The notes under the pieces were generated by a model that was not told the DNA's origin, did no database searches, and was given only the letters and a program-made list of their open reading frames with translations. From Rhynchopus sp. YZ270_cl-10 (taxonomy: Eukaryota), in contig OZ037839.1 in the NCBI GenBank assembly GCA_964035575.1, positions 1,860,001 to 1,924,000 on the forward strand: a stretch of 64,000 nucleotides of DNA, written 5' to 3'. Position numbers and translations under genes: made by a program. Shown piece by piece: positions 2,211-29,165 of this stretch (positions are counted from its first letter, which is position 1; each line of letters starts with the position of its first letter).

Positions 2211-2290
2211 TAGGCTCTGCACTTCCACTGCTGCGCGCATGCTCCTCTCAGACCTCGCAAGGTCCTGCTCATCTCATCGCCACGTACAGT

Positions 2291-3073: not shown

Positions 3074-3666
3074 CAGGTTTGCATGAGACTGATGTAAGCA
3101 CACAATCCGGTTCTCGGATGATTTATTGCACTGATTCCATGAAAAGCACGTTTGTGATGCAGACACAGCCCATCTTCAAACCCAACGTGTTCCAGCGCGA
3201 TAACGATGGTGATAAAGATGTGTGCACGAGAGGCACATTCATCTTACAAATTCTCAGTTCTTCTCTTCTTCTTTGCGAAGCGAGTTGTGGTCTGCCGACA
3301 TGAGCTTGTCCTTTTCTGCATTCTTGCCTTCTTTTGCGCCAGGACAAACGTGTTGACACAACTGCAATGTCACTGTCTAGTGAACGGCAAACGAACACGA
3401 TGCTCGAACTGAGCGCCTGCCCCCCACCCCCACAAGTGAGGCGCTTACACTTTGCACACCCCGTCTTCCAGATGACATCTGCAATGCATAAGCCAACGTT
3501 TGCCCCCTTTCAAGCATGATTAAGTTCAGCTTAAACATATTTTCCATTTCTCTGTTCTCACAACCGGCAAGTGAAACAAATAAGAAAGCTATTTTGTTGT
3601 ATCTTGCCTCCCTCCTCCTCCTTCTCAACACTTACCCCACAACAGAGCAACACTTCACTCGAAACA

Positions 3667-5256: not shown

Positions 5257-5668
5257 CCCTGCCAGCTGCGCAGAGCTGGAATCGCTGCTGCACAGCTTAC
5301 TGGCAGCCCTACAATATCATGACATGTACGACAGTTTGTGTGGAGAGAGGCTTAGGTTGATCTCATAAACATTTCAAGTGCAATACGCGTTTTCGGATGT
5401 CACGAGTCTTACTGTTTCCCCTTCCCCCCTTTTGTGTCTCAGCACCTTACTTTTTCAATATGCGGGTTTTTCGAGTCTTTTGGGTTTTTTTGGGGGTTTC
5501 AAAAATACAGAGAAAGGATGAATACGATGAGCAAAGAGCAGTTGCAAGCAGCTTAGTTACACCTACGTGACATTGCAAGCAGTTGCAAGCAGCTTAAATT
5601 GTTAAGCCTTAATTACACACAGCAAAAAAAAGAACGGGGGTGTGTTTCATTTTGTTTCCTGTTTCAAG

Positions 5669-7250: not shown

Positions 7251-7303
7251 CCTCCTCCTTCTCAACACTTACCCCACAACAGAGCAACACTTCACTCGAA
7301 ACA

Positions 7304-9163: not shown

Positions 9164-10185
9164 CGGCGCCAGCTGCGCACTGCTCCCCTCACAAACCACT
9201 CCTCCCGCAAGCACTGCAGACAACAGAGCTGGAATCGCTGCTGTACAGCTTTCTGGCAGCCCTACAATATCATGACATGTACGACAGTTTGTGTGGAGAG
9301 AGGCTTAGGTTGATCTCATAAACATTTCAAGTGCAATAGGCGTTTTCGGATGTCACGAGTCTTACTGTTTCCCCCTTTTGTGTCTCAGCACCTTACTTTT
9401 TCAATATGCGGGTTTTGGAGGGGTTTTCGGGTCTTTTTGGGGGTTTCAAAAATAAAGAGAAAGGATGGATACGATGAACAAAGAGCAGGACGACAGCAAA
9501 ATGGAGAACGGGGGTGTGTTTCATTTTATTTCACTGTTTCAAGGTGACCAAGCTGCAGAAGCACGCGAGGCTAGGGTTCATATTTTTAACCCCTTTCTTT
9601 TGATGAAGCTGTATGCTGGGAGCCCCTTTCACACAATGCAACTTATTCCCCAACCGGACGCTCCATCACACAGGATTCATGAGCCTGTGTTCGCACTGAT
9701 CCCCGTTTATGTAGCTAATGAGCGGAAGGTGGTTATGGCATATCAGACGTAAAGCACGAAATGGATGCAGGATGGAATGGTTGGGTGTCCACCCTGGTAC
9801 ATCCGGTCATGGTGTTAGGGGGATACCTGGCTGACCTGACTCATGTACCAAGGTACACTGCCACGAGAGGCTTTGTATATCACCTCTACTTTGTTCTAAG
9901 TAAGTGAAAACCGCTTCTGGTGGGAACGGTAGTGAGAGCGCAGAGGAAGCGATGGTGGGAATGCAACGAGCTTTTTTCATGATGTTTTATTCCCCACACA
10001 AAATATCACGCGCAGGGAGTTTTTTTCATGCGTCTGTTGTTCGTTCTTCAGCGACACCTTTTTTTCATATTTTGTCCAGGTGTTCTCGCATCACCCTGAA
10101 CCCGAATTGGGTGTCTCTCACTGTCACCCCCCATCTACCCAGCCGGTCTGCGAGTTCAGTTCGCGCACCTCCTCCAGACCCGGCC

Positions 10186-10390
10186 GAGGCTTACGATCAT
10201 CTTATGAACCTTTCTTTCCATGCACTTGCAACTTATTCCCCAACCGGACGCTCCCATCCAGCCACACCACGCGCAGGTGCTGAGAGCTCCGTCTTCAACC
10301 TGCTGTACACCCTTTCCTTCCCGCTTTGCTTCAGCGCTTTGTCCATCCTGTCCCATATGCCCGAGGTGGGCAGCAACAGTTTTCCGCACG
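10186..10390. repeat. Short form of the 5669-7250 element
   Basis: gaggcttacgatcatcttatgaacctttctttcc...ccgcacg, nearly identical to 2005-2210. Confidence 0.75.
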
Positions 10391-10775
10391 CGACAATTAT
10401 TTGCACTTTCTCGCAAGATGCTGGGAAGACAATTCAAGCTTTGGTGTGGCGATCTGTTTTGTGTAGTTTTGCATTCGGAATGGAGCTAATATATTCTGTC
10501 CACTACTTCCACAACCGTCTGCACAACCACAATCAGTGAATGCCCACAGAGCTGGACAACAGCCGGAGGAGGAGGGATTGTTTTGGAAGGTTTGGTGCAC
10601 AAGTGTGCCCACCGCTTTTTATGAATAACCGTGTCAGCCCAAAGTCTTTTCTTTTTTTTTTTTCAGGGTGAGGATAAGCGAAAAACAAACAAGAAGGCTA
10701 TTTTGTTGTATCTTGCCTCCCTCCTCCTCCTTCTCAACACTTACCCCACAACAGAGCAACACTTCACTCGAAACA

Positions 10776-12722
10776 ATGGAACTGTGTGTGCAGGGATATG
10801 ATGATGACACCAAATACGTGATTGAGGTGGGTGAGAACGACACAACGGAGACGATGCGGCAGAAGGTGGCGTCTGCAACAGGGTTGTGCGAAGACAGCTT
10901 CCACATGGGCTTCGGAGGGAAGGAGGAAGGAGAGGACATCACAGAACTGAGTGCTGGAGACACAGTCGTGTTGACGAAAACTACTAAGTACCAATCTGCT
11001 GAGGCACTTCGTGCCTTGGGTGAGACGGACATTTCCGAAGCGAGGTTGGCGACTGTGAAGGATCCTGAGGTGGCTTCTCTGCTTCTTCAGGCGGAGGTTG
11101 CGACTGTTATTCCTGCTGGGTTCTTGTGGGGAGCATCGTTTACGAGACTTGATCTCTCTGCTGTGTCTGGGGTGACGCGAATTGAGCACGGCTTCCTCTA
11201 CGGGTGTGCGTCGGTGAAAACCGTTGACTTGTCGGGATTGTGCAACGTTACGCACATTGGGAATGACTGTCTCTCTAGCTGCCCATCGTTGACAAGCCTT
11301 GTGTCAGGGTTCACTGCTGTGACGGTGATAGGGAACTCATTCCTCAAAGGAAGTGGCTTCACAGAGCTTGACTTATCCGCGATGACGAGTGTGGCGACCG
11401 TTGGTATGAACTTGCTCCAGAATTGCGTGTCGTTGGAAAGTCTTGACATCTCAGGATGGCGCAAAGTTACGCACATTGCGAATTACTTCCTCAAGAACTG
11501 CACCTCGTTGACAACCATTGATTTGTCAGCTTTTTGCAGTGTCACGAAGATCGGCTCCGAATTTCTGCGCAACTGCACGTCGTTGACCACCATCAGCTTT
11601 TCAGGGATGACCAATGTGACGGACATTGGGCACAGCTTTTGTGTGGACTGCACCTCGTTGGCAACGATTGATTTGTCAGCTTTCTGCAGTGTCACGAAGA
11701 TCGGCTCCGAGTTTCTCCGCCACTGCTCGTCGTTGACCACCATCAGCTTTTCAGGGATGACCAATGTGACGGACATTGGGCACAGCTTTTGTGTGGACTG
11801 CACCTCGTTGGCAACGATTGATTTGTCAGCTTTCTGCAGTGTCACGAAGATCGGCTCCGAGTTTCTCCGCCACTGCTCGTCGTTGACCACCATCAGCTTT
11901 TCAGGGATGACCAATGTGACGGACGTTGGGAACAGCTTTTGTGCGGACTGCACCTCGTTGGAAACGATTGACTTGACAGCACTGCACAGGGTTGTGAAGG
12001 TAGGTTCCGACTTTCTGAGGAGCTGCACCTCGCTGGGAAGTATCGACCTCTCAGCTTTTGGAAGTACCACAGATGTTGGGCACTACTTTCTTAGTCACTG
12101 CTCATCATTGAAAACAGTTGATTTATCAGTGTTGTGCAGCATCACACATATTGAGTCAGGCTGGATGTCAAAGTGTTCCGCGTTGACAACAGCAGACTTA
12201 TCAGGACTGAGCAATGTTAAGAACATTAATTCACAGTTCCTACAAGACTGCACATCCTTGACCACGCTGGACATGTCAGGTTTTGGCATGGGCACAATGA
12301 TGCAACGTTACTTCCTTGACAACTGCAACGCACTCACAACAATCGTCTTGCCAGGCAGCATCGACATTCACGAGATGTCTCTCCCGAATGAAGCCCAAAA
12401 GAACCATGGCACTGGACTCACGAAGACCTTCGATGCATGTGTGCGTGACATTTACGCAAGGTTTACGGAACAGTTCGGAGGTGTGCGGACAGAAGATCTG
12501 GTACAAACAGACGTGTCTGGAGATGCAAGACAATGTATTGCATTGAAAGCAGGACAAGAAGGAGAAGGTTTGATGCAAGCACAAGAGGACGAGGACAAGC
12601 AGGAACTGGACAAACAGGAGCATGGACGCACACACTCACAGGCCACTCCTCCCGCAAGCACTGCAGACAACAGAGCTGGAATCGCTGCTGCACAGCTTTC
12701 TGGCAGCCCTACAATATCATGA
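10776..12722 (+). CDS. Ubiquitin-like + LRR protein, copy 4 (two extra LRR pairs)
   Basis: ATG at 10776; three tandem ~150-bp units at about 11500-11950. Confidence 0.88.
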   Translation: MELCVQGYDDDTKYVIEVGENDTTETMRQKVASATGLCEDSFHMGFGGKEEGEDITELSAGDTVVLTKTTKYQSAEALRALGETDISEARLATVKDPEVASLLLQAEVATVIPAGFLWGASFTRLDLSAVSGVTRIEHGFLYGCASVKTVDLSGLCNVTHIGNDCLSSCPSLTSLVSGFTAVTVIGNSFLKGSGFTELDLSAMTSVATVGMNLLQNCVSLESLDISGWRKVTHIANYFLKNCTSLTTIDLSAFCSVTKIGSEFLRNCTSLTTISFSGMTNVTDIGHSFCVDCTSLATIDLSAFCSVTKIGSEFLRHCSSLTTISFSGMTNVTDIGHSFCVDCTSLATIDLSAFCSVTKIGSEFLRHCSSLTTISFSGMTNVTDVGNSFCADCTSLETIDLTALHRVVKVGSDFLRSCTSLGSIDLSAFGSTTDVGHYFLSHCSSLKTVDLSVLCSITHIESGWMSKCSALTTADLSGLSNVKNINSQFLQDCTSLTTLDMSGFGMGTMMQRYFLDNCNALTTIVLPGSIDIHEMSLPNEAQKNHGTGLTKTFDACVRDIYARFTEQFGGVRTEDLVQTDVSGDARQCIALKAGQEGEGLMQAQEDEDKQELDKQEHGRTHSQATPPASTADNRAGIAAAQLSGSPTIS

Positions 12723-13713
12723 CATGTACGACAGTTTGTGTGGAGAGAGGCTTAGGTTGATCTCATAAACATTTCAAGTGCAATACGCGTTTTCGGATGT
12801 CACGAGTCTTACTGTTTCCCCTTCCCCCCTTTTGTGTCTCAGCACCTTACTTTTTCGATATACGGGTTTTGGAGGGGTTTTTGGGTATTTTTGAGGGTTT
12901 TAAAAATAGAGAGAAAGCATGAATGCGATGAACAAAGAGCAGGACGACAGCAAAATAGAGAACGGGGGTGTGTTTCATTTTGTTTCACCCTTTCAAGGTG
13001 ACCAAGCACGAACCTTTCTTTGTATGTTGTTTATTCTCTGCCAGTTGTGAGCTGCATGACCGGAGTCGGTCCTAGCCCATGGGGTGGCCCCTTTGTTTGT
13101 GTTATGCTCCTGGTGTGAAGCGCCCGTCCTAGCCAGGGTGTGGGAAATCTCAGGAGTGCCTTTTATACGTCCTGTCTGCCATTTAGGTTGATACAAATTA
13201 TCGCGCTTCGAAAACATTATAGCCAATTTGGTACAGAATAAATGTGCATGTTTTTCTGGACCAACGCTTTTGAAAGCACACACAAAGAGAGCTCATTAAC
13301 CGAATGCAACGTACTACTTTTGGGGGGTTCGTGTTCAGCCTTTTTCAAGCTTTTGTATAGGGAATAGTTTCGAACTTCTCCCCTCTTTATCCCACAGGGT
13401 TCTCCTTTGCCAACCCCGAGTCTCTCGAGCATGTTATCCCCCCATTTTGTTGTATCTTGCCTCCCTCCTCCTCCTTCTCAACACTTACCCCACAACAGGG
13501 GAACACTTCACTCGAAACAATGGAACTGTGTGTGCAGGGATACGATGATGACACCAAATTCGTGATTGAGGTGGGTGAGAAGGACACAACGGAGACGATG
13601 CGGCAGAAGGTGGCGTCTGCAACAGGGTTGTGCGAAGACAGCTTCCGCATGGGCTTCGGAGGGAAGGAGGAAGGAGAGGACATCACAGAACTGAGTGCTG
13701 GCGACACAGTCGT

Positions 13714-13732
13714 GTTGACGAAAACTACTAAG
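13714..13732 (+). repeat. Left target-site duplication GTTGACGAAAACTACTAAG
   Basis: Identical to 22517-22535 and single-copy in the uninterrupted paralogues. The last G may belong to the element, so the TSD is 18 or 19 bp. Confidence 0.95.
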
Positions 13733-13815
13733 AGGGTGAGAGACGACGCGCCTCCACGGGGTACCCTCGGGAGACGCCCCCCTCCTCTATGGGGGGAGGC
13801 GTCTGCTAAAGCGCG
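13732..13815 (+). ncRNA. Candidate HDV-like self-cleaving ribozyme
   Basis: P1 GAGGGUG/UACCCUC, L3-like UCCACGG, GG after P1', P4 AGACGCC/GGCGUCU, J4/2 GCUAA, P2 CGCGC/GCGCG. Located exactly at the element 5' end. The P2/P3 register is imperfect. Confidence 0.65.
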
Positions 13816-13852
13816 GGGAAGAAGGACGGCGGCGGGGGGCAGCCTCGACGCG

Positions 13853-16800
13853 ATGTGCGGAGGGGCAGGTGGCCAAGGGGGGGAAAAGGGGGTGCTGCAG
13901 AAATACCTGAGGGGCTTCGACATGCGGGTAAAGGACGCAGGGGGGAACGGAGACTGCCAATTTAAGGCGGTCTCGATGGCTGTGCACGGAGACGCCACGG
14001 CGCACGGGGGGCTGAGGGAGATGGCGGTGGGGGTGTTGGAACGGGAAGCGGAGAATTGGGGTGAGCACGTTGACGGAGGACCGTCCGCCTACCGGAGGTA
14101 CTGCTCGGCGATGGCGAAGCAGGGGTCCTGGGGGGACCACCTGACCCTGAAGGCGTTGGCGGAGGTGCTGATGCGGGAGGTGTATGCCTTCTCGGTGAAG
14201 GATGGGGAGGTGCGTGTGCTGAAGGTGCACCCGAAGGAGAAGGGCAGCGGTGCAGCGGTGACGGTGGCGTACGTGGACGCATGCCACTACCTGTGCGTCC
14301 TCCCCACGAGCACGGGGGAAGAAGCCGCCGAAGACCGGGCCCGCAAGGCGATGGTGGGGGGTGCGTTGGAGGTGACGGAGAAGCCGTACACCGTGCCGCA
14401 ACCGCGAAACGATGCGAAGGCGGGGACGGAGGGGGGCTTCACCCAGGGGGGAGGGAAAAAGAAGACGACGGCAGCGCTGACATTGCTGCAATCGGAGTGG
14501 GTGGGATCGACGCTTGTGCCGTGGGGGGAGGTGGTGGATAAGTCGGAGGGGGTCTGTCTTGTGCCGCAGGGTAGAGAGGTAGAGGCAGAGGGGAAGATCG
14601 CGCGCACGCCGGGCGTGACGTGGGTGGGTTTCGGGTCCTTCCCGAAGTCTGGTGGGGAGAAGATGCAGTGCCCCATGGGTAAGCAGGGGAATGGGGGGAA
14701 GGTGAACGGGGCGGCGAGCACGGCCGTGTACGTGGTGGGGAGGCTGAGGCCGGGGAGAGGAAACGGGGGGAAGAAGGCGTCGGCGGCCGTCCAACTGGTG
14801 ACGGTGTTTGTGACGATGAGGCCGACAGCAGGACAAGCGCAGGACCTGGTGTCAGCGGGGAAGAAGATGCGTGCGGAGGTGGGGTGCAACCTCAACCGCC
14901 CACCATTGTGGCAGGAGGGTAAGCTGATCTCCTCGGTGGCCGACGTAAGGGAGGACGTAGCAGAGCGCTGCCTGAAGCAGAGTGGGAAGGGGGGTGTCTT
15001 CTTCCGGATGAGACGCGAGCAGTCGGAGCATCTGCCTGTCGTGTGGTTGGTGGACGGGGTGGGGCTAGAAGAGGCCCAGGGGCTGGCGACCCGGATGGGG
15101 GGATGGGGAGTGGCGGCGAGGTACGAGTCCCTGGGGATACGGGTGAAGAAGGAGGATCAGGAGCGTGCAAATGCGGCACTCATGCAGGAGGGAAAGGCGC
15201 CCGAAGGTCGATACGTGGTGTCCGGTTTCCCGTCGGGTACGTCCGGTGAAGCGGTGATGGAGTCGCTGGCAGGCGCAGGGTGGACGGTGACGCCGCTGCG
15301 GAGGCTGGAGGGATGGCGTTGGGTGGTGGGAGCGAAGCTGGATCCGCCGACGTGGGCCATGGACATGGAGGGGAACGGGAAGGGGCTGCTGATCCGCAAG
15401 GATGGGCATAAGGAGGGCGGGGGTAGGGCAACGGCTCCGGGTCCGGGGGCGAAACAGAAGGCCAAGGTACATACCGCACATGCGTCTGGTCCGACATTTG
15501 GTGCCCGGACGGCGCCGGCGGCGACAGCGCAGCACAACCGTGGCACTGGGCCCGACTACGGTTGGGTGTCCTGGGCTGCGCACGCACGCCAAGCAGCAAC
15601 AGCGCCAGCTGCAGCGAAGCCACCCACTACCACATCAAGGACACCTCCACCAACAACAACAACAACAACGAAGCAACGGACGCCGAAGGGTCAACCCCCA
15701 ATGACGTCGCCCGCCCCATCACCTGAGGACGCAGGCGAGAAGTGGGCGGAGTTGGAGCGCCGGATGGAGGAGAGGTTGGACCGCCTGGTGGGCGAGCGCC
15801 TCCAGACCCTGCTGCAGGAGACGGTGGCGTCGCTGACGGCCCAGTTGCGGGAAGAACGGGTGGAGCAACGGAAGGAGCAGCAGGTGTGGATGGCGGCCAT
15901 GCTGGAGCAAGTGGGCAAGCTCTGTTCCATGCCGAAGGAGGCCACGGCTGCTGCGAGAGAGGACGCCGCTGCTGCTGCTGCAGCCCTGAGGCAGGAGGAG
16001 GAGGAGGAGGCGAAGGCCGCCGCCGCTGCAGCCCTGAGGCAGCGTGAGGAGGAGGCGAAGGCCGCTGCTGCTGCAGTCCTCAAGCAGCGTGAGGAAGAGG
16101 TGAAGGCCGCCGCTGCTGCAGCCCTGAGGCAGCGTGAGGAGGAGGCGAAGGCCGCCGCTGCTGCAGCCCTCAAGCAGCGCGAGGAGGAGGTGAAGGCCGC
16201 TGCTGCTGCAGCCCTGAGGCAGGAGGAGGAGGTCGCCGCTGCCGCAGCCCTCAAGCAGCGCGAGGAGGAGGTGAAGGCCGCTGCTGCTGCAGCCCTGAGG
16301 CAGCGTGAGGAGGAGGAGAAGGCCGCCGCTGCTGCAGTCCTCAAGCAGCGTGAGGAAGCCGACGCTGCTGCTGCAATCCTCTGGCAGCAGGAGGAGGAAG
16401 CCGCCGCCGCCGCTGCTGCAGTTGCTGCTGAGAACGCCAGGCAGCGCGAGGGGGAGGCTGCTGCTACTACGGCCCCGACTGTCGCAGTGCCCACTGCAGC
16501 GCCCACAACACCCGAGATGCAGATGGCGGATGAATTGTTGGACACACTCCCAGACGGGAATGCCGAGGACGTGATGTCACCGGAGCCCGCAACGATGGCA
16601 GGTAAGCGGATACGTGCGGGAAATGGGTCCAGTGAGGTTGAGGAGCTGAGCCCGCGCCGCAGGAGGAGGAGGGCTGACACCATCCGTGGAAAGCCGGGGG
16701 TAGTCGTAGAAGTCGCCGAAGCACGGAACCGGTCGCGGTCAGCACCGCCCAGGGACACATCGCCGACTGCGGACGTTGCTGGCGCCGGTGATGTGGAGGT

Positions 16801-17440
16801 AGTGGTGGCGTCCCCGAAGAAGAAGAAGAAACGCAGGAACATTGTGGCCGCTGAGAAACGACGGGAGGCACTACGGGCAGCACAGGAAGAAGCGGCGGCA
16901 AAGAAGGAGAGACGTGCTGCAGCAGTGCAGGCACAACGTGAGCAGGAGCAAGGGGAGAACGCCGGCGCAGGGACCCCCGCACCCACGACACCAGACGCCG
17001 AGGCACGGATGGACGACGCCGACATGGCACTGCCGGTGCAGACATCGCCAGACTGTGCGGCTGTCGAGGAGGACGCGGAGACCTCGCCAGCTCCCAGAGT
17101 GCCGGTGGCGCCACCTGCCGTGACCCTGGCGGGCAAGCGGGAAGACCGCAGTGAGTCCGGTGAGACGGTGGCGCTGCTGAGTCCGCCGCGCAGGATGCGG
17201 ACGGAAGTCCCCGCAAAAGAGCAGGCGGAGGGGAACGAGAAGAACGAGGAGTCGTACGGGAACGCAGTGCTGGAGGCTGGCGACTCCATGGAGTACTGCG
17301 AGGAGGGAGGCAACGGCGCAGCCATCCCGGTGACTGTCGTGAAGGTAGCGGGGGACGTCATCGAGATCGCGTTTCGTCCCGTCCAGGGACTAGACAACAG
17401 GTTGGTAGGCCGCAACACCCTGCGCGATGTGGGGCGGTGA
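13853..17440 (+). CDS. Retrotransposon ORF1: OTU-like cysteine protease, central domain, Ala/Glu/Arg-rich coiled-coil repeats
   Basis: GNGDCQFKAVS..SWGDHLTLKALAE..CHY OTU motifs. First ATG inside the element is at 13853. The frame is also open from the host ATG at 13520. Confidence 0.85.
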   Translation: MCGGAGGQGGEKGVLQKYLRGFDMRVKDAGGNGDCQFKAVSMAVHGDATAHGGLREMAVGVLEREAENWGEHVDGGPSAYRRYCSAMAKQGSWGDHLTLKALAEVLMREVYAFSVKDGEVRVLKVHPKEKGSGAAVTVAYVDACHYLCVLPTSTGEEAAEDRARKAMVGGALEVTEKPYTVPQPRNDAKAGTEGGFTQGGGKKKTTAALTLLQSEWVGSTLVPWGEVVDKSEGVCLVPQGREVEAEGKIARTPGVTWVGFGSFPKSGGEKMQCPMGKQGNGGKVNGAASTAVYVVGRLRPGRGNGGKKASAAVQLVTVFVTMRPTAGQAQDLVSAGKKMRAEVGCNLNRPPLWQEGKLISSVADVREDVAERCLKQSGKGGVFFRMRREQSEHLPVVWLVDGVGLEEAQGLATRMGGWGVAARYESLGIRVKKEDQERANAALMQEGKAPEGRYVVSGFPSGTSGEAVMESLAGAGWTVTPLRRLEGWRWVVGAKLDPPTWAMDMEGNGKGLLIRKDGHKEGGGRATAPGPGAKQKAKVHTAHASGPTFGARTAPAATAQHNRGTGPDYGWVSWAAHARQAATAPAAAKPPTTTSRTPPPTTTTTTKQRTPKGQPPMTSPAPSPEDAGEKWAELERRMEERLDRLVGERLQTLLQETVASLTAQLREERVEQRKEQQVWMAAMLEQVGKLCSMPKEATAAAREDAAAAAAALRQEEEEEAKAAAAAALRQREEEAKAAAAAVLKQREEEVKAAAAAALRQREEEAKAAAAAALKQREEEVKAAAAAALRQEEEVAAAAALKQREEEVKAAAAAALRQREEEEKAAAAAVLKQREEADAAAAILWQQEEEAAAAAAAVAAENARQREGEAAATTAPTVAVPTAAPTTPEMQMADELLDTLPDGNAEDVMSPEPATMAGKRIRAGNGSSEVEELSPRRRRRRADTIRGKPGVVVEVAEARNRSRSAPPRDTSPTADVAGAGDVEVVVASPKKKKKRRNIVAAEKRREALRAAQEEAAAKKERRAAAVQAQREQEQGENAGAGTPAPTTPDAEARMDDADMALPVQTSPDCAAVEEDAETSPAPRVPVAPPAVTLAGKREDRSESGETVALLSPPRRMRTEVPAKEQAEGNEKNEESYGNAVLEAGDSMEYCEEGGNGAAIPVTVVKVAGDVIEIAFRPVQGLDNRLVGRNTLRDVGR
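15961..16430 (+). repeat. 45-bp coding minisatellite (KAAAAAALRQREEEx) in ORF1
   Basis: About ten imperfect units visible in both DNA and protein. Confidence 0.85.
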
Positions 17441-20400
17441 CGGTGTGGTGCGGTGGAAGGGTACGGCACAGGATTGGCTTCTTCGTGCGTAGTTGGAGAA
17501 CGAGACGTTTTTGTGAAAACTGTCTCCCCAACAAGGGGTCAGCATCGTTTGCGCTCTGCGGGCTGTATGCTGTCGGGGACAAGGGGTAAGGGTAGAACGC
17601 GAAGGGGGGTGGGGCGAGGGGTCGGACACAGGGTGCGTCGAGGGAGGCGACGAGGGGCGTTTTTGGGCAGGGGGTCACTGCTGACATGTGGAGACGTGGA
17701 GGAGCATCCGGGTCCGTCGACCATGTCGCTTGGCACGGCAAACGTGACGTCTCTGAGGGCACACCCTGCGGTGGGGGAGTGGGATGTGGACGTTTGTGCT
17801 CTGCAGGAGGTGCGCCTCACAGAAGAAGAGATGAAGGGGGCAGCAAACGACGTGAAGGGGTATGGTGCCAAGCAGCTTCTCTTTGGTGCCCCTTGCAGAC
17901 GAAGCCAGGGATCAGACCCTCTGCGCACGCGCACGCAGAATGGTGGAGTTGCGATCATGACGTGCGCTGACATACCGACCAGAGCAGTACCGCCACAATG
18001 TGCCCAACAAGCGTGGAACGAATGCCGCTTTACGCATGCGCAGGTGGCATATGGGAGCGGGGGACGTAACATCTCTGTGTTCTCGTTTTATGGCGTGTGT
18101 GCTGACAGCGACCGCACGGAGCAACTCCTGACAGGCATCTTTGAAGAAGCAGCCAGCCTTGGGGACATACCGGTGTTCATTGCCGGAGACTTCAACGTAG
18201 AGGCTAACGAAAGTCTAGCCATTCGAGCGGCCATCTCCTCCGGCAAATGGGTTGATGCGGCAGATACCTACGCACAGCAGTTGGGTAAGGCAGCAGAGAA
18301 CACATGCTATACCTCCACATCGTCTGGCAGACGTATCGACTTGGTGCTGGCGAACCACGTGGCTGCCCCTGCGATCTCCAAAGTGGTGGTCTGGAAAGAG
18401 AGCTGCCTCCCGGTACACAGACCGGTGGTGTTGACGTTAGACCTGACGCGATACGAGCAGAAGGCACCGCAGGCACGCCCTCCCCTTTCTTTGATCGGCG
18501 ACGACTGGACGAAATGGCCGGCGAAGAAGGAGAAGGAGCTTGCAGCGAAGGTGATGCAGGAGAACGCTGCCCCTGAAGCCGACCTGACGAAGATGTCGGT
18601 TGAAGATCGCTGGGCACGCTTCTGCAAGATTGCGGAGGACTACCTGCTGAAGAGAGGTGCTGCAGACTCAGACCCGAAGCAACAACGCCACAGGGGGAGA
18701 GGGGAGGTGCAACCCGACGTTCTCCGACATCGGACGGCCCGCATGGACTGCGACACGCCGGATGCTGTGAACCTGGAGACGGCTCAACTGCAGAAGACAT
18801 GTCGTCAGATGGAGCAGCTCATTGGTGATCGGAGGAAGCGCTTCGGTCAGCCATCTGCAGAATCGTTGAACGAACGGCAGCTGTGGGCGAAAATCCGCAA
18901 GAAGAAGCATCTACTGAAGAGTGACACCTGGGACCTCGACCTTCCTGGGATAGAGGCGTTGTGTGGGCTCCTTGGCTGCTTGAAGAAGAGGGGTTTTGTC
19001 CTGCTGGAGCAACGGCGTCGGGCCCGCATCAAGGAATGGCGCCGCACAATGAAGGAACACATGAAGGTGAACCCAGCGAAGGTGTTCTCGTTCCTGCGGA
19101 AGGCTACGTCGTCACACACCACGTTCCTGAAACGGGAGGACGGCACGGTTACAGCTAACCTCCAGGAGATGGATGAACTGCTCATGGATGACCGTGCTTG
19201 GGGTGGGGTGTTCCGGATGTACGACGATTCCGAAGAACCTGCGTGGACGACGTTCTTTGATAGGTTCAAGGAACACATTCCTGAAGGGACCCCTTGTGTA
19301 TGCGAACCCCTGACCGCCGACGACCTCCGTACGACCATCGGCAAGATGAAGCGGAAAAAGGCGGCAGGCCTCGATGGGTGGAGGGTGGAGGAGCTGAAGG
19401 AACTGCCTTTGACACTGCTGGAGGAACTCGCGCGCTGCCTGAACCTGATCGAGGATACTGGGAACTGGCCCAGGGTGATTGCGAGGGCGTTGGTGGTGCT
19501 CATCCCCAAAGGAGAAGGCGAGGAGCCCCTGAAGCAGCGACCCATTACCATCACCAGTGTGATGTACAGGTTATGGGCGGCGACTCGACTCCGCAAAGTG
19601 GCGACGTGGCAGGAATCCTGGATTCACGAGCGGCAACACGGCTTCCGGAACAAACACGGAACCGAAGACCTGCTGTGGTTTCTCTGTGCGAAGATGGAGG
19701 AGGCTCTGATAGACGACACACCTATCTATCTAGCCTCCTTCGACTATCAGAAGTGCTTTGACCGTGTTCCCCAAGAGATCATGTTCCAGCTCGTCGAACG
19801 GTTGGGTCTTCCCGACAACATGATGCGCCCCATCCGGGGTATATACAAGAAGCTGGGGAGGCGTTTCAAACTTCCGGCAGGTCTTGGCAAAGAATGGTTT
19901 GCGACGAATGGTATCCTCCAAGGATGCCCACTGAGCGTAATCTTCCTGAATGCGCTGGTGGCGGTGTGGATGAACGGGGTGGAGAAGGAAACGGGCACGC
20001 AGGGGCTGGCGTATGCTGACGACACCAACCTCCTGACGAAGACCCTCGACCAGCTGCGAGCGGGTGTCGCCTTCACCGGACACTTTGCAGACTTGACGGG
20101 ACAACGCGTCCACGCGGGGAAGAGCACGTGGCAGAGCAACCGTCCTGATGAAGAGGAAACTGTGCAGATGAACGGCGCGGATCTTACTCGCGTCGAGAAG
20201 TCGGAGTGCCTGGGGGCGACGGTGCAGGCCCGACAGGCTGGGACGCCCACGCTCCCGACGAAGCTGGAAGACACCATCGACGCATGCGGACCGCTAGCAG
20301 GTAAGGTGGGATGCCTCCCGCTGACTCAAGGTGAGAAAGCAGGCATCATGCAGGCTGCAGTGATGTCGAAATCTGTGTACGGTATCACGGTGCAGGACCC

Positions 20401-22447
20401 ACCTGGGAAATACGTGAACAGTCTTGCAACTGCAGTGGAGAAAGGGGTCCACGGCGTGAACAAGATGAACCGAAGAAGCGTACCGGTCATGCTGAATGTC
20501 TTCGAGAAAGGCCATCTGCTCGACCCCTCGGTGGCATTCGACTACAGAAGGATCATGACGTGGGCGGCGATGATACGCAAATCGGATGAGATCTGTTTGC
20601 TGGTCGAAAAGTGCAGGTCACGTGCGAAAGCGAAGCAGGCGAAGACTGGAGGACCCATCGGGTTGATTGCGCGAGCCCTCAGCCGCCTTGCGTGGTCATG
20701 GATAGACACGACAAAAGTGAAAACGCACGATGGGAGCATCGTTGATGTGAAGACAGTAAGCTTGGGCAGACTGGGCCACGTTGTGCGAGAACGGATGTTC
20801 TTCATTCGACTCTCCCGTACGAAGACGACTGCGAAGGCCAATGGCAAAGGCAGAGCTAACCTGAAGGGTATTGAAGCGGGGGTGGATAAGGAGAAAACCC
20901 TTGCTCTCACCCGAAGCAAAACTTTGACGGATTACGAGGCGGGGACGCTGCGACACATTGTAGCTGACGGTGCGATAACGGGGGTGCGACTTGCGAGAGC
21001 GCGCATACGGGACTCGGCCATCTGCGTGCACTGCGAAGCGGGGGTGGACGAAAATCACAAACACTTGTGGTGGGAATGTGAAGCATGGAGTAGCATTCGT
21101 GCGGAGTACCCCTTGCTGTTGGACATTGACAGAACGACCTGGCCAAACTGTCTCGCTATCTGCGGCATGTGCACACCGGACACACCTTTGGAATGCGCCC
21201 GTGTTGCAGACCTGCAGAAGATGATGGTGCGCATCCTCATCGCACGCTCCAAGTGGAGCAGACCGGAAGCGGCGAACCCGCGACTGCAAGAAGACCGATA
21301 CCCGTGGACGTGGGCGCCGGAGTTGGACACGACGACGCAACACGCGAACAGTTTGGTGGACTACACCCCCCTGAAAAGGAGGTGGCCGTATGGACGTGCG
21401 CTGCTGCTGGCGTTTGCCTCCTGGCTGGGTGGTTTACAATGGAGCGACGAAGCTGGACGTGAAGTCTCCCACATGGAGCTGCTCATCGACTTCGAGGTTG
21501 CCACAGGGATGGACATCCGACCTGGGGACAAGACCGGCAGAATAGCGCCGAAGCTGAAGCAGCCGAGGGATGGGACTGGGGAAGAAGTCAACAATGGGGG
21601 GGAAGACGACGGGAGTGAGGAAGACGACGATGATGACGACGTGGTGCCAGTAGCGCTGGTCCACAGAGAAATGGCGAAGACGACCACCTTTGGGCATATG
21701 TTGGCTTCACTCAGAACCTTTTCGGAGAGCTCTCTCCATCCGGGGAAGGTGAAGGTAACGCATGTTCTCGCTTCGTTTGGGGCGAACGCCATCACAGGCA
21801 TCGACCGCCGTCCTATCTTTGCCGGCGGAGAAGAAACGTTGAAGGCATTGCGTGCGCTATACGATGCTGGTGTGGCGTACCGTCTGCAACGCAGCTCCGA
21901 AGGCATGTCTGAGGCGGAGCTCCGTGGTGGCGATAGAGCGAGAGGTACATGGATGGGGGAGTATTCTGCTGAGACGGCGTACCCCTCCACAGAAGTTAGG
22001 GGCAGGAGGGCACTACCATTCATCCAGCGGGCTGAACAGGAGACATCTGCGCATGCTCGCTACCGGCACCATGAGCACGTGCGTCCAGGGGACGCACCCG
22101 TGAAGGCACCTGAAGGAGCGGTTCCGATCTTCCAGTTTGCGATATGTGTGCTGCACCGGAAGACGAAGTGTGATGCCTGCTCGAAGAACGCCCAGGCAGA
22201 CCTGATGCATTGCTGCTTTGCGCACCACTCCAACGACGACGGGTTACCGATCCGACACGAAGCATGCACTAAGCATAGACTCTCGAGGTGCGGGAACTGT
22301 GTGCAAGAGAAGAGTACGCTGGATCACTGCTGCCGCCGCCACCACGACACCTCGAAGGGGCGACAGACGACGCTGGGAGGCTTCTTCAAGAAGAAGCAGA
22401 CGAAGCAGAAGGATGGGCACAGCAGGGGCGGTGATGGACTTATGTAA
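17441..22447 (+). CDS. Retrotransposon ORF2: 2A-like peptide, AP endonuclease, reverse transcriptase, CCHC-like finger, C-terminal Cys/His repeats
   Basis: APE: TANVTSL, LQEVR, GDFN, RIDLVL. RT: AGLDG, RPITI, QHGFR, DYQKCFDRV, GILQGCPLS, YADD. Finger: CVHC..HLWWEC. Same frame as ORF1; true start unresolved. Confidence 0.93.
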   Translation, partial: RCGAVEGYGTGLASSCVVGERDVFVKTVSPTRGQHRLRSAGCMLSGTRGKGRTRRGVGRGVGHRVRRGRRRGAFLGRGSLLTCGDVEEHPGPSTMSLGTANVTSLRAHPAVGEWDVDVCALQEVRLTEEEMKGAANDVKGYGAKQLLFGAPCRRSQGSDPLRTRTQNGGVAIMTCADIPTRAVPPQCAQQAWNECRFTHAQVAYGSGGRNISVFSFYGVCADSDRTEQLLTGIFEEAASLGDIPVFIAGDFNVEANESLAIRAAISSGKWVDAADTYAQQLGKAAENTCYTSTSSGRRIDLVLANHVAAPAISKVVVWKESCLPVHRPVVLTLDLTRYEQKAPQARPPLSLIGDDWTKWPAKKEKELAAKVMQENAAPEADLTKMSVEDRWARFCKIAEDYLLKRGAADSDPKQQRHRGRGEVQPDVLRHRTARMDCDTPDAVNLETAQLQKTCRQMEQLIGDRRKRFGQPSAESLNERQLWAKIRKKKHLLKSDTWDLDLPGIEALCGLLGCLKKRGFVLLEQRRRARIKEWRRTMKEHMKVNPAKVFSFLRKATSSHTTFLKREDGTVTANLQEMDELLMDDRAWGGVFRMYDDSEEPAWTTFFDRFKEHIPEGTPCVCEPLTADDLRTTIGKMKRKKAAGLDGWRVEELKELPLTLLEELARCLNLIEDTGNWPRVIARALVVLIPKGEGEEPLKQRPITITSVMYRLWAATRLRKVATWQESWIHERQHGFRNKHGTEDLLWFLCAKMEEALIDDTPIYLASFDYQKCFDRVPQEIMFQLVERLGLPDNMMRPIRGIYKKLGRRFKLPAGLGKEWFATNGILQGCPLSVIFLNALVAVWMNGVEKETGTQGLAYADDTNLLTKTLDQLRAGVAFTGHFADLTGQRVHAGKSTWQSNRPDEEETVQMNGADLTRVEKSECLGATVQARQAGTPTLPTKLEDTIDACGPLAGKVGCLPLTQGEKAGIMQAAVMSKSVYGITVQDPPGKYVNSLATAVEKGVHGVNKMNRRSVPVMLNVFEKGHLLDPSVAFDYRRIMTWAAMIRKSDEICLLVEKCRSRAKAKQAKTGGPIGLIARALSRLAWSWIDTTKVKTHDGSIVDVKTVSLGRLGHVVRERMFFIRLSRTKTTAKANGKGRANLKGIEAGVDKEKTLALTRSKTLTDYEAGTLRHIVADGAITGVRLARARIRDSAICVHCEAGVDENHKHLWWECEAWSSIRAEYPLLLDIDRTTWPNCLAICGMCTPDTPLECARVADLQKMMVRILIARSKWSRPEAANPRLQEDRYPWTWAPELDTTTQHANSLVDYTPLKRRWPYGRALLLAFASWLGGLQWSDEAGREVSHMELLIDFEVATGMDIRPGDKTGRIAPKLKQPRDGTGEEVNNGGEDDGSEEDDDDDDVVPVALVHREMAKTTTFGHMLASLRTFSESSLHPGKVKVTHVLASFGANAITGIDRRPIFAGGEETLKALRALYDAGVAYRLQRSSEGMSEAELRGGDRARGTWMGEYSAETAYPSTEVRGRRALPFIQRAEQETSAHARYRHHEHVRPGDAPVKAPEGAVPIFQFAICVLHRKTKCDACSKNAQADLMHCCFAHHSNDDGLPIRHEACTKHRLSRCGNCVQEKSTLDHCCRRHHDTSKGRQTTLGGFFKKKQTKQKDGHSRGGDGLM
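17663..17716 (+). other. 2A/StopGo-like peptide LGRGSLLTCGDVEEHPGP
   Basis: 16 of 18 residues identical to T2A (EGRGSLLTCGDVEENPGP), directly upstream of the endonuclease domain. Confidence 0.85.
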
Positions 22448-22516
22448 CATCACCTCCACGATGTATTGTATCACCTATCTCGGATAGGGGTGCATGCATC
22501 GAAAACGGGCCCCCAC

Positions 22517-22535
22517 GTTGACGAAAACTACTAAG
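22517..22535 (+). repeat. Right target-site duplication
   Basis: GTTGACGAAAACTACTAAG followed by the continuation of the LRR gene. Confidence 0.95.
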
Positions 22536-24280
22536 TACCAATCTGTTGAAGCACTTCGTGCCTTGGGTGAGACAGACATTTCCGAAGCGAGGTTGGCGAC
22601 TGTGAAGGATCCTGACGTGGCTTCCCTGCTTCTTCAGGCGGAGGTTGCGACTGTTATTCCGCACTACTTCTTGCGCAATGCATCGTTTACGAGACTTGAT
22701 CTCTCTGCTGTGTCTGGGGTGACGCGAATTTATGACAACTTTCTCCACGGGTGTGCGTCGGTGGAAACGGTTGACTTGTCGGGATTGTGCAACGTTACGC
22801 ACATTGGGAATGACTGTCTCTATCGGTGCCCATCTTTGACAAGCCGTTACGCACATTGCGGACAACTTCCTCCATCACTGCACCTCGTTGGCAACCATTG
22901 ATTTGTCAGCTTTTTGCAGTGTCACGAAGATCGGCTCCGAATTTCTGCGCAACTGCACGTCGTTGACCACCATCAGCTTTTCAGGGATGACCAATGTGAC
23001 GGACATTGGGCACAGATTTTGTGTGGACTGCACCTCGTTGGAAACGATTGACTTATCAGCACTGCACAGGGTTGTGACGGTAGGTAACGACTTTCTGAAG
23101 AGGTGCACCTCGCTGAGAAGTGTCGACCTCTCAGCTTTTGCCAGTACCAGAGGCGTTGGGCACTACTTTCTTAGTCACTGTTCATCATTGAAAACAGTTG
23201 ATTTATCAGTGTTGCGCAGCATCACACGCATTGCTGCAAGCTGGATGCAAGGGTGCTCCGCGTTGACAACAGCAGACTTATCAGGACTGAGCAATGTTGA
23301 GTTCATTTGTGCACTGTTCCTGCAAGGGTGCACATCCTTGACCACGCTGGACATGTCAGGTATAGGCTGTGATACAATGATCCATCACGACTTCCTGGAC
23401 AACTGCAACGCACTCACAACAGTCGTCTTGCCAGGCAACACCGACATTCACGAGATGTCTCTCCCGAATGAAGCCCAAAAGAACCATGGCACTGGACTCA
23501 CGAAGACCTTCGATGCATGTGTGCGTGACATTTACGCAAGGTTTACGGAACAGTTCGGAGGTGTGCGGACAGAAGATCTGGTACGAACAGACGTGTCTGG
23601 AGATGCAAGACAATGTATTGCATTGAAAGCAGGACAAGAAGGAGAAGGTTTGATGCAAGCACAAGAGGACGAGGACAAGCAGGAACTGGACGAATGAGGA
23701 TATTTCGAGGGTTTGGGGCAGGATAAACAGGGGGTCTGGGGGGAACGGGGACACTTCGGCAAAAGTATTGAAGCACCTTTTTGTTTTGGATATCTGTAAG
23801 GACTTTGGGAAAACTTGCCACAGTATGCATGCTGTTGCCGGCACGGCATCTGGGACGCAGATTGCCACAGTTTGATTCTGTGCCATACCAATCATATACA
23901 GTTGGAACATGCGGTATAAACATCGGAAGTGAAGAAGCAAAGTGAGGCATTTGATTTCGATAAGCTGCTGGTTTTTTCGAGTGCATGCGCTAAGGGACGC
24001 GTCATGACAGCTATGTCCACCACTCAGCAGTTCCAACATCGGCACCAAACACGCCGAGACCACCGGGACCAGAATGGATTCTTTGTCCAGAATGGAAGCT
24101 CGAGAATGTATGTGTAGGAGGACTGCATGGTTCGGGTCCACCCCATACACCAAGGTACACTCAGTAACACTGTCCTGAGATGGATTCAACTCAACTTTCC
24201 CCCACAAACCTCTCCCTCTTCCCCTCCCGTTACCGTCACCACGACGCACAGACGACTAACAACACTCAGTAACGCAAACA

Positions 24281-25741
24281 AGGAACACAGAGTTTGACGC
24301 AAAGCACTTTGTGAAGTGTTGTGCCGCTGCCGCAGGGACAGGGCTGCTGCTGAGGAAGGTGTGCGCCGCGTACAGAACGCCCCCACCACCAGCACCACCA
24401 ACCCGCTCGGCGCCTTGCCCGGAGACTGCACGCAGACCGTTCGATGAGTGCGAGGTGCTGAACGAGAAGGAGCAGAATGAGATGTTCTATAGACACTCTC
24501 GTGTGCAGAGCGTCACGTACTTTAGGCAGAAGGAAGGCGCGGAGGACGGCCTGATGGAGTATCTCCGTGACAGAGTTGCGCAAATGATAGCAAAAAACCC
24601 GTGGATGGCAGGGGAGATCCGTTTGCGTGATGCGAAGGACAGCAGCTCTCCGATGTGTCTGACGTGGAGGCATGAGGTGTCTGCTGAAGAAGCTGCCGAA
24701 CACTTCCATGTGTTCGAATGCGACGAACGTACGGAGGCCACCCTGCAGGAGGTCTACGGTCGCAACCACGGGGTCGTGCCGGACACACCCCCGCCAAGCT
24801 TTTCAGAGTTTTCCTTGCGGATCCTTGAGAAGTACAGCCCTGCCGGCGTGCCTCTTGTTTTCTACAGCCTGCTGCGGATGAAGTCTGGGTACCTCCTGGT
24901 CTCCTCCTGCAGTCACATTGTGGCGGACGGTGCGACGCACTACATGCTGCGTGCGATGCTCTCCAACGACGTTGAGGTGCAAGCGTTGGACAACAAACGT
25001 GTCCCCGAGGCAGACGCGATGACCAACCATTGGATGCCAAACGGGCTTGCGGCAGAGAACATGAGAGGCTTTCTGTTTGGCATAATGTGTTCGAAGCTGT
25101 ACATGGCGTGCTCCTCGTTGCCGCTCATTGGGCGTTTGTTTCCACCGCAGGCTGGTTTGGGGGTGTTTATCATGAATCAAACTGAAATTAATCGCCGCAA
25201 AAAGATTTCGGCAGATCGCAACCACGAGGGGCGTAAGGGTGTAGAATACGTTTCGAGCAATGATGTGATGACGACGTGGTGGGGGAACAAATTTCTGCGG
25301 AAGGGAATGCAGATGTGGTGCGTCTTGAACCTTCGCGGACGTGCCGAGGGGGTGACAAGCACGAAGGCGGGGAACTACATCGGAGCTATGGTCATCCAGA
25401 GCGACGACAAGGAGGTCACACCTGAGCACCTCCGTGAGGTCCTCATCCACGGCAACAACTCCGAACACCGCGAAGACTCGACTCTCGACTACTACACTAG
25501 GGCGGTAGCCTTCGTGACAAACTGGAAGACCTTCCACAGGAAGCTCGTCACACCGACACACGACCAGGTCATGCATCTCCCCGTTCTCGATTTCACTATG
25601 CGCTGGGGCAACAGCGTCTTCGTCTTTGGCACCGGCTGTGGCGACGACGAGACAGGTATCTATTGTGACCGTACAGTCTTCCGTGCACCACCCAGCCTCG
25701 ACAATGACTCAATGGTGGCACGCCAGCTGATGCGTGGATGA
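24281..25741 (+). CDS. BAHD-like CoA-dependent acyltransferase, copy A (ancestral ATG changed to AGG; next ATG at 24482)
   Basis: HxxxD motif SHIVADG, SSNDVMT, NLRGR, DFTMRWG (DFGWG-like). Confidence 0.7.
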   Translation, partial: RNTEFDAKHFVKCCAAAAGTGLLLRKVCAAYRTPPPPAPPTRSAPCPETARRPFDECEVLNEKEQNEMFYRHSRVQSVTYFRQKEGAEDGLMEYLRDRVAQMIAKNPWMAGEIRLRDAKDSSSPMCLTWRHEVSAEEAAEHFHVFECDERTEATLQEVYGRNHGVVPDTPPPSFSEFSLRILEKYSPAGVPLVFYSLLRMKSGYLLVSSCSHIVADGATHYMLRAMLSNDVEVQALDNKRVPEADAMTNHWMPNGLAAENMRGFLFGIMCSKLYMACSSLPLIGRLFPPQAGLGVFIMNQTEINRRKKISADRNHEGRKGVEYVSSNDVMTTWWGNKFLRKGMQMWCVLNLRGRAEGVTSTKAGNYIGAMVIQSDDKEVTPEHLREVLIHGNNSEHREDSTLDYYTRAVAFVTNWKTFHRKLVTPTHDQVMHLPVLDFTMRWGNSVFVFGTGCGDDETGIYCDRTVFRAPPSLDNDSMVARQLMRG

Positions 25742-27091
25742 GGGAAGTGAGGGAGAGACAGTGGGCCTCAAATTTCCTTTATGCTTACATGCAATACCAA
25801 AAGGAAATGGAACACCGTCCTCCCTTCCTTTTTCCATTTTTCTAATCTGCGGCGGGTTGGAGTAGAGCCACACTTCACCGACAGGTCGAGGTGTGTGCGT
25901 TTCACCACAACCTCTCCCTTTTGTCTTTATTGTTTTTATTGCTTTATTGTTTGCGGGGGTGGGGGAAAAACATAAAAAGGAAAAGTAGGAGCGCGATTTC
26001 AATTTTGCCACTCTTTTGGGCAGGGGAGCAGGGCTAGCTGTAACAGCCGTGATTCTTTTTTCAATTTTTTTTTTCGAAGGTGCAGAACTTTCGCAGCCGA
26101 AAAAAAAACCTTTTTTGGGAAGATCGGGCACTTTTCAGTTTAAGCTGGGAACCCTCAGATGTAACAGGAACTTTTTCCGAAGAAAATCACTGCGGCCCCT
26201 GGTGTGTTTACAGCTAACCCTACAAGGGGAGGAGGGGAGAGGAGGGAGCAGAGAAGAGAGGCAACATCGAAAAAAAATGAAGACTGTCTTTTGGCAGTTA
26301 TACTACAAAACGTGCTCCAAAAAAATGGCAATTTTTTAAATACGGGTGAAAAATAACACTTCATCTGCTCACATACCTAGGCTATTGGGCAATGTATTTC
26401 TCTTGGGAACTAGCCAGATGCTTTCAAATGCTCATGCAATTGACAATTGAATTGTTAACCGTGTGTTCCCTCTGGCTTCCGGAAGCACTCCTGCGTCTGG
26501 AGACCGGCAGCCGTCAGATTGTGACGAAGGACACAGCCGAGAATCAGGGGGGCACTTTGTTTGCGAGAAGTAACACTGTCGTACCCTGTTGTTGGCTTCG
26601 GTTCTCTCTTCCGCACTTTTTCTTCTTTCTTCCTGCCAAGTGAGGCTTTTATGCTCATCTTTCCAACCAGTACTTTTTCTTCACCGCTTACCCAAACATC
26701 GGAGGGGCACAGAACCAAGGTGGGTTTTCCGATTTTGGAAAGCAAAGCTGTTTTCCGCACCTTAGTTATGCCCATGAGTGTATACGCTAGACCTTCTTTA
26801 GGGACGCGTCATGACAGCTGTGTCCACCACTCAGCAGTACCAACATCGGCACCAAACACGCCGAGACCACCGGGACCAGAAGGTGCCTGTTTTTCTGATC
26901 AGATGTTCAGCTCGAGAATGGATGTGTAGGACTGCATGGTTCGGGTCCACCCCGTACACCAAGGTACACTCAGTAACACTGTCCTGAGATGGATTCAACT
27001 CAACTTTCCCCCACAAACCTCTCCCTCTTCCCCTCTCCCGTTACCGTCACCACGACGCACAGACGACTAACAACACTTAATAACGCAAACA

Positions 27092-28552: not shown

Positions 28553-29121
28553 GGGAAGTGAGGGAGAGAAGGTGGTGACCTTTAAAAAAAACACGCTTAT
28601 TAGAGAGTGGCATGCTGAAACCTTTCATTAAAACCCCCTTTTTCAAAGTGGCAGGACTCGTGAGATATTCAAAAAAAAAAAGTGGAGATTGCACAACTGT
28701 GGCAACACAACCGAGGCAACTACAACAATTTATCAAATTTTATTTTTTGAAATACGGGTGAAAAATAACACTTTACCTGCTCACATACCTAGGCTATTGG
28801 GCAATGTATTTCACTTGGGAACTAGCCAGATGCTTTCAAATGCTCATGCAATTGACAATTGAATTGTTAACCGTGTGTTCCCTCTGGCTTCCGGAAGCAC
28901 TCCTGCGTCTGGAGACCGGCAGCCGTCAGATTGTGACGAAGGACACAGCCGAGAAGCAGGACGAAGCAGGGGGACACTTTGTTTGCGAGAAGCAACACTG
29001 TCGTACCCTGTTGTTGGCTTGGGTTCTCTCTTCCGCACTTTTTCTTCTTTCTTCCTGCCAAGTGAGGCTTTTAAGCTCATCTTTCCAACCCTTCATATCA
29101 GAACGAACTGGATATTGTCTG

Positions 29122-29165
29122 CTGGATGGGGTCCACCCCGGTGCACCGGGGTGGACCCCATCCAG
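29122..29165. repeat. Perfect 44-bp palindrome
   Basis: ctggatggggtccaccccggtg|caccggggtggaccccatccag. Confidence 0.95.

Follow-up and report, generated by a model that had tools for sequence, protein, structure and literature searches.

We describe a retrotransposon without long terminal repeats (non-LTR) in a 64,000-nucleotide stretch of DNA from Rhynchopus sp. YZ270_cl-10 (contig OZ037839.1, positions 1,860,001 to 1,924,000; hereafter the window), where it interrupts a gene that encodes a ubiquitin-like (Ubl) domain and BspA-type leucine-rich repeats (LRRs). Copies of the element share a single insertion codon in such Ubl–LRR genes. We propose that it inserts at this codon, is transcribed together with its host, releases its own RNA through a 5′ ribozyme, translates its second open reading frame (ORF2) from that frame's own AUG and removes a short, basic leader from the product through a 2A-like peptide. 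We put the probability of this whole reading at roughly 55%.

The insert between two perfect copies of a 19-mer (13714-13732 and 22517-22535) measures 8,784 bp and spans 13733-22516, or starts at 13732 if the final G of the target-site duplication (TSD) is counted in. The same 19-mer stands uninterrupted at 167, 3861, 7498 and 10970 in neighbouring Ubl–LRR paralogues, and these four empty sites therefore fix the bounds of the element. ORF1 (13853-17440) and ORF2 (17441-22447) are both open and lie in one frame, with a single TGA followed by CGG between them. An APE endonuclease domain and a non-LTR reverse transcriptase (RT) occupy one ORF flanked by TSDs, as in APE-type non-LTR retrotransposons. 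The initial annotation had called an intact element with two uninterrupted ORFs in one frame, and the perfect 19-bp TSD, the open frames and the Pfam matches to APE and RT bear this out: the element is intact and recently active. The order that had been read along it (ribozyme fold, OTU-bearing ORF1, UGA, 2A, APE–RT) likewise holds as predicted anatomy. No second full copy lies within the 64-kb window. The features outside the ribozyme and the ORF1 domains are as follows.

13520..13732 (+): host gene sequence ahead of the insertion, encoding the Ubl domain (PF00240, E 8e-6), in frame with the 5′ untranslated region (UTR) and ORF1
13714..13732 (+): 5′ copy of the TSD, 19-bp repeat, with four empty paralogous sites
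17438..17443 (+): ORF1 stop TGA, then CGG
17441..17566 (+): spacer of 42 codons, T-rich and open though not coding-like; the AGs at 17491 and 17534 are candidate splice acceptors
17567..17716 (+): starts with the first in-frame AUG, continues as an Arg/Gly-rich leader and ends in the 2A-like peptide (17666-17716); ribosomes are predicted to skip from Gly 17711-13 to Pro 17714-16
17768..18394 (+): APE endonuclease domain (PF03372, E 6e-10)
19502..20152 (+): RT domain with YADD (PF00078, E 2e-19)
22148..22342 (+): C-terminal duplicated Cys/His-rich motif, seen in the sequence and kept in the sister ORF2
22448..22516 (+): 3′ UTR of 69 nt with a stable hairpin (by folding) and no poly(A) tail in the sequence
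22517..22535 (+): 3′ copy of the TSD, 19-bp repeat
22536..23697 (+): remainder of the host gene past the insertion, encoding the BspA-type LRR; the frame changes near 22845

A shared insertion codon in Ubl–LRR genes

Copies of the element were read as protein-cluster records and run contigs rather than from a whole genome; 31 family records were examined, and 19 of the 34 members of the main cluster lie outside this set. Eight of the 31 carry foreign N-terminal sequence, and in every case this is a Ubl domain of a host gene that breaks off at one and the same codon. The eight host parts are 54-94% identical to each other and belong to different Ubl–LRR paralogues, and the element part of all five other full-length fusions agrees with that of the window in 699-700 of 700 residues. 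Two of the eight fusions are 5′-truncated, at different points, and come from two ORF2 subfamilies that are 76% identical. Because the host parts diverge while the elements are near-identical, and because two differently truncated subfamily copies share the codon, the pattern fits independent retrotransposition into a single site rather than duplication. All eight informative records thus show the mark of sequence-specific non-LTR elements, namely independent copies inserted at a single site within a repeated sequence. The codons for Leu-Thr-Lys, at which the TSD starts, are kept in all eight hosts, and the first nick would fall there. This target-site specificity was missed by the initial annotation and is, in our view, the best feature of the element.

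A shared site could also arise if one old insertion had been spread by duplication or gene conversion, and conversion is plausible among tandem paralogues such as these host genes. Against this, the flanks differ by up to 46% around nearly identical elements, copies truncated at different points and drawn from two subfamilies share the codon, and the window copy retains a perfect TSD. We regard this origin as very improbable.

Several observations nevertheless temper the case for targeting. Most records (23 of 31) begin inside the element and are silent on the site, two of eight full-length 5′ ends show no host fusion, and records made by a gene caller reveal in-frame insertions only. Moreover, in a family with a 54% identical ORF1, the upstream sequence is not Ubl in either of the two informative records. 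Because in-frame cases alone are visible and the diverged family has other flanks, the specificity may be limited to this element family and is not necessarily strict.

Sequence-specific APE elements are reported mainly from the R1 and Tx1 clades and target RNA genes and repeats; as targets of R2, R1 and Tx1 the excerpt lists RNA genes, repeats and transposons but no protein-coding genes (PMC4640811). A closer likeness is the RHS hot spot of ingi and RIME, which is also one 5′ coding site in a protein-coding multigene family whose insertions result in pseudogenes (PMC7563717). Both the host family and the element differ there, and the genome-wide specificity of L1Tc/ingi is only relative, whereas here all informative copies among the 31 records lie at the site.

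Taken as a sequence of steps, our proposal runs as follows. Host transcription would read into the element, and the ribozyme would cut before G13732. Translation of ORF1 from AUG 13853 would yield an RNA-binding protein with a probable deubiquitinase, and ORF2 would start at AUG 17567 on the same RNA through reinitiation or internal entry. The 2A peptide, in its H variant, would free part of the APE–RT from a 49-aa leader. APE would then nick at the Leu-Thr-Lys codons, and the other strand would be cut about 19 nt further; target-primed reverse transcription would proceed without poly(A), with priming possibly on host sequence carried in the same transcript. An apparently separate lineage that keeps inserting at one protein-coding codon would offer a system for studying site choice by APE or by a tail-less RNA 3′ end, and such site choice is relevant to tools for RNA-only gene insertion.

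Two observations concern the host genes themselves. The interrupted gene changes frame at 22840-22850, about 310 nt past the insertion, through decay or assembly error. Summed over contigs, depth at the Ubl part exceeds that of single host contigs by a factor of hundreds, and the Ubl–LRR family therefore appears to be very large.

The ORF1 stop and the start of ORF2

ORF1 ends at the identical residue in all seven family records that reach this point, window copy included; two further records depart from the frame earlier. In the family with a 54% identical ORF1, the end lies at the homologous place in four of four records, and five ORF2 records start at the same codon just after the stop. One contig of run X1 covers 16982-17727 and another 13730-14424, neither with any difference from the window. 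Their depths are 792 and 547 against 78-114 for host contigs; depth here is not copy number, the contigs drop rare variants and X1 is possibly the source sample. Judged from these records, the stop is a feature of the family, because the same end recurs in the family and its diverged relative, the ORF2 starts agree and the X1 contig concurs. A mutation of this copy or an assembly error is excluded by that contig and by the conserved ORF1 ends. Loss of the stop in other copies would have counted against the initial annotation; the stop is kept in every record that reaches it.

The observation is limited to a stop codon whose context resembles that of readthrough sites and does not extend to readthrough itself. 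In the initial annotation, some ribosomes read UGA-CGG through the spacer and leader, the leak sets the ratio of ORF1 to ORF2 product, and 2A then frees APE–RT from ORF1. UGA followed by CGG or CUA is the type II readthrough context, and TGA-CGG is the leaky context of tobraviruses (PMC2754532). The sequence after the stop is not coding-like. The spacer has a codon score of -0.16, lower than that of any of the 37 ORF2 windows (on which the scoring model was also trained) and similar to the UTRs, and its GC content at third codon positions is 0.45 against 0.68-0.81. Of shuffled spacers, 16% stay open, and the spacer itself is open in another frame as well. Folding of the 133 nt that begin at the stop is unremarkable (z 0.48). 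TGA is also a common stop here: it ends 14 of 16 other plus-strand frames of at least 250 aa in the window, many of them paralogues, with TGA-C in four and TGA-CGG in one, a paralogous host gene.

Comparative evidence on readthrough points both ways. The stop, the frame and the open spacer are all kept in the ORF1 ends, ORF2 starts and X1 contig given above, which is weak evidence for readthrough because the copies are nearly identical. A relative, L005, has an in-frame TGA-CTG ahead of its polymerase ORF, and another, related family (P0157) fuses OTU, APE and RT in one ORF without 2A. Neither the upstream ORF of L005 nor that of a distant relative, L008, matched the ORF1 profile. Diplonema papillatum has OTU-ORF1 and 2A–APE–RT as separate gene models in four pairs with consecutive accessions, and 10 of its 11 ORF1 records end at one place. 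The 2,944-aa record P0134 was considered as proof of a natural ORF1–ORF2 fusion and rejected, as its middle appears to be out of frame. A similar UGA junction in Tca2 gave no readthrough in a yeast reporter (PMC2194720), and the literature that we searched holds no precedent for stop-codon readthrough in any non-LTR retrotransposon. A leaky UGA is favoured only by its three-nucleotide context and opposed by several controls, and we consider it doubtful.

The 2A-like motif GDVEEHPGP, placed before APE by the initial annotation, is confirmed in the sequence and ends at 17716. We take this peptide to be close to the T2A peptide of an insect virus. It has H at the N position of the consensus GD[V/I]ExNPGP, as have P0036 and P0333; the match is exact in P0053 and P0054. 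Ribosome skipping takes more than the 2A motif by itself (PMC3708506). Many relatives have 2A-like motifs before APE and others lack them. Two relatives (P0012 and P0024) have two tandem 2A-like motifs there, and P0053 and P0054 join the spacer of the window copy to an ORF2 that is only 76% identical, likely through recombination close to 2A.

An in-frame AUG at 17567, absent from the initial account, lies 49 codons ahead of the skip site. In published 2A-bearing long interspersed nuclear elements (LINEs), three of which have an ORF1 and others none, 2A lies 40-80 aa from the start of ORF2 (PMC3708506). Because the AUG falls within this range, we favour, by a modest degree, initiation of the polymerase at its own AUG on the same RNA. 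A fusion is not needed to explain the 2A, which published LINEs carry without any ORF1. In L008, too, an AUG precedes the 2A-like motif, by 54 codons, and it does not share the frame of the upstream ORF. Two points count against initiation at this AUG: codon usage is also low between the AUG and 2A (-0.09), and the upstream ORF of L008 is the one that failed to match ORF1.

The same AUG and 2A could instead be used on a separate capped mRNA, made by trans-splicing of a spliced leader onto one of the spacer AGs. A spliced leader is present on essentially all D. papillatum mRNAs (PMC10161547). The spacer is T-rich, its AGs stand behind 14-15 pyrimidines in 25 nt, the stretch 17524-17538 resembles one found about 22 nt before host ATGs, and a related contig is similar up to 17578 and again from 17648. 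On the other side, L1Tc transcripts are unspliced (PMC5814959), and the closest look-alike ends in AAG and those of the host in CAG. We judge trans-splicing unlikely and prefer initiation on the same RNA as ORF1. How ORF2 is translated in bicistronic LINEs is an open question (PMC3708506), and the 280-nt junction could separate reinitiation, trans-splicing and readthrough.

The predicted 5′ ribozyme

At the 5′ junction a fold resembling the hepatitis delta virus (HDV) ribozyme can be drawn from the sequence, with the following parts.

13732..13815 (+): predicted HDV-like ribozyme
13732-37/13763-68 (+): P1, 6 bp
13750-52/13760-62 (+): P3
13753-59 (+): L3, 7 nt
13754-55/13769-70 (+): P1.1
13772-13804 (+): P4
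13806 (+): putative catalytic C, in J4/2

The fold begins exactly at the junction, and its first G doubles as the last base of the TSD. Published ranges for the parts (PMC3774820) agree with the predicted P1 (6-7 bp), P3 with a 7-nt L3, P1.1, P4 and the C in J4/2. P2 is weak, with 3 bp, a bulge and 2 bp where at least 5 bp are expected; mismatches in P2 occur in a third of R2 ribozymes (PMC3774820). A descriptor search gave a single match in 128 kb, at the junction (13732), against eight matches in 527 kb of resampled controls and none in 3,000 for the 5′ stretch. In the family with a 54% identical ORF1, translated records agree at 21 of 28 codons across the fold and at 1 of 12 past its end. 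The P4 stem of that family has three changes, which still permit all seven pairs, as do 43 of 798 random changes; because of synonymous ambiguity this is a soft test.

The ribozyme proposed in the initial annotation is therefore best described as likely: the fold is drawable at the junction, the diverged family keeps the region, and we think it probable that the ribozyme is functional. Some findings argue the other way. The descriptor was composed after the site had been seen, an Rfam search of the window returned nothing at or near the gathering level, and a short P2 such as the one predicted here is a liability, as a 3-bp P2 with a mismatch accompanied very low activity in a Leishmania ribozyme (PMC4035085). 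The folding energy of the region is unremarkable (z -0.89), so that stability does not detect it. Covariation at the DNA level gave no result, the diverged family failing to align over the 5′ region at 80%; the descriptor found no 5′ match in ten metagenome loci, most of them without a 5′ end, and one internal match in L008.

The 5′ region might alternatively be conserved as coding sequence. A single open frame runs from the host ATG through to 17440, and host ATG, 5′ UTR and ORF1 form one open frame in all six host-fused full-length records. ORF1 could then be made as a fusion to the host Ubl from uncleaved, capped host mRNA, with a ribozyme that is weak or dead, as the poor P2 would allow. 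Against this, 47% of UTR shuffles are open as well, protein records reveal in-frame cases only, conservation ends where the fold ends, and the P4 changes permit all pairs, with the reservation about random changes just given. We consider a coding role improbable and retain ribozyme release. The P4 loop also contains an out-of-frame AUG that opens a 6-codon upstream ORF (13789-13809).

ORF1, relatives and neighbourhood

13853..17440 (+): ORF1, 1195 aa, with OTU, a middle part with predicted RRM folds, an Ala/Glu/Arg repeat of variable length and a low-complexity tail
13943..14287 (+): OTU-like cysteine protease domain with Cys35 and His145 motifs (PF02338, E 1e-9, ORF1 aa 31-145)
15200..15412 (+): predicted RRM-like domain, the last domain of the modelled region (model pLDDT 75)

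The OTU domain called in the initial annotation matches PF02338 and is shared with relatives. The catalytic Cys and His motifs that mark OTU deubiquitinases are present and are kept in all nine homologous records listed. Because OTU occurs in the D. papillatum pairs and in the P0157 family, it is, by these comparisons, a module of this lineage. The middle region was modelled from a 15-row alignment (pLDDT 75; a single-sequence model reached only pLDDT 37). Its best Foldseek matches are tandem RRM proteins (E 8e-5), and a structure comparison with an RRM gave the middling score of Z 7.3, with a root-mean-square deviation of 2.7 over 69 aligned residues. Such predicted folds are expected for a LINE ORF1. 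The ORF1 product is thus probably an RNA-binding protein with a likely deubiquitinase, which may act against ubiquitin-dependent control by the host; intact catalytic motifs in several families suggest that retrotransposons may counter such control. No OTU-bearing LINE was found in the literature searched, which did not extend to subscription journals or Repbase. The Ala/Glu/Arg repeat (15960-16420) differs in length between otherwise identical copies, and one of the two records that leave the frame ends there. Among ORF1 relatives, P0134, P0203 and P0313 have an extra domain before OTU that looks by eye like a degenerate RNase H, and P0252 has OTU plus zinc knuckles.

In ORF2, the Cys/His-rich motif is a possible nucleic-acid-binding zinc module, and Pfam gave no RNase H match at E 0.1. 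The 3′ hairpin (22445-22520) has z -3.25, with 2 of 200 shuffles equally stable. By sequence, the best match in the Protein Data Bank is LINE-1 ORF2p (186 bits; R2, 112 bits). The nearest named relatives are D. papillatum proteins (45%), which makes a diplonemid host probable, and the RT groups with these and with unnamed environmental proteins (support 96/99, six rows) in a tree from which rows of fewer than 230 RT residues were dropped and whose outgroup was RTE-like fish proteins plus one long row, with no clade references. The motifs YRLW, ILQGCP and LQGCP have no occurrence in the RTclass1 file of PMC3708506; by eye, the Ambal and Ingi RT entries differ, and Proto1, RandI and CRE share single motifs. 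The excerpt of the D. papillatum genome paper leaves the elements of that species unclassified (PMC10161547). Sixteen pattern matches among viral contigs include no relative, and the ESM Atlas returned only generic RT and APE clusters. This appears to be a separate lineage, which may already carry a name in Repbase, a resource outside our comparison. Its closest known counterpart, KAJ9444445.1 with KAJ9444446.1 of D. papillatum, has an OTU ORF1, a separate ORF2, a nearly identical 2A-like peptide and an RT that is 51% identical, on the same six-row branch; it differs in a 325-aa repeat leader before 2A and bears automatic names only.

In its working mode the element resembles L1Tc/ingi (PMC5814959, PMC12278014, PMC4035085, PMC6765202), which has a 5′ HDV-like ribozyme that cleaves at +1, 2A just before APE, APE–RT and a TSD (PMC5814959). 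The 2A of L1Tc also has N and H forms, H occurring in 20% of L1Tc with lower activity (PMC3708506). Ingi elements, however, have one ORF, no ORF1, RNase H and a poly(A) tail (PMC3708506). The present element encodes OTU in a 1195-aa ORF1 and shows neither an RNase H match nor a poly(A) tail; compared by eye, its RT motifs are unlike those of the L1Tc and Tvingi entries. It thus shares 2A before APE and the predicted 5′ fold and, on sequence features, departs from Ingi in three defining ones: single ORF, RNase H and poly(A).

Other systems share single traits. LINEs of the CR1, L2, Rex1 and Crack clades have the same 2A placement, and CR1-26_BF, CR1-53_BF and CR1-1_LG also have an ORF1; these are animal clades with PHD or esterase ORF1, and the excerpt mentions no OTU or ribozyme (PMC3708506). 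R2 has a fixed site in a multicopy gene, is co-transcribed and is released through an HDV-like ribozyme that may include host bases (PMC3774820, PMC4640811); it differs in its restriction-like endonuclease and one ORF. NeSL/Utopia-1_TSP is site-specific and non-LTR with an N-terminal cysteine protease, which is Ulp1-like rather than OTU and is combined with a restriction-like endonuclease in a single ORF (PMC4640811). New here are the OTU module and the single-codon target in protein-coding genes; the ribozyme and the 2A are already familiar devices, and readthrough is unproven. That this is an undescribed protist LINE combining OTU, strict one-codon targeting, a host transcript, ribozyme, UGA readthrough and 2A skipping is rather unlikely.

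Tandem Ubl–LRR (BspA-type) paralogues occupy 1-12722 and 58812-61661 of the window. At 33745-33930, a decayed Ubl fragment is followed directly by a short piece from the 3′ end of a related element (79% over 62 nt), which may be the remnant of an old insertion into this gene family. A 493-codon frame present in five copies (24260-41695) and frames of 1888 and 662 codons (47735-53401 and 44324-46312) have no Pfam match, and a DUF2855 gene at 56365-57678 (E 2e-80) is possibly a bacterial transfer.

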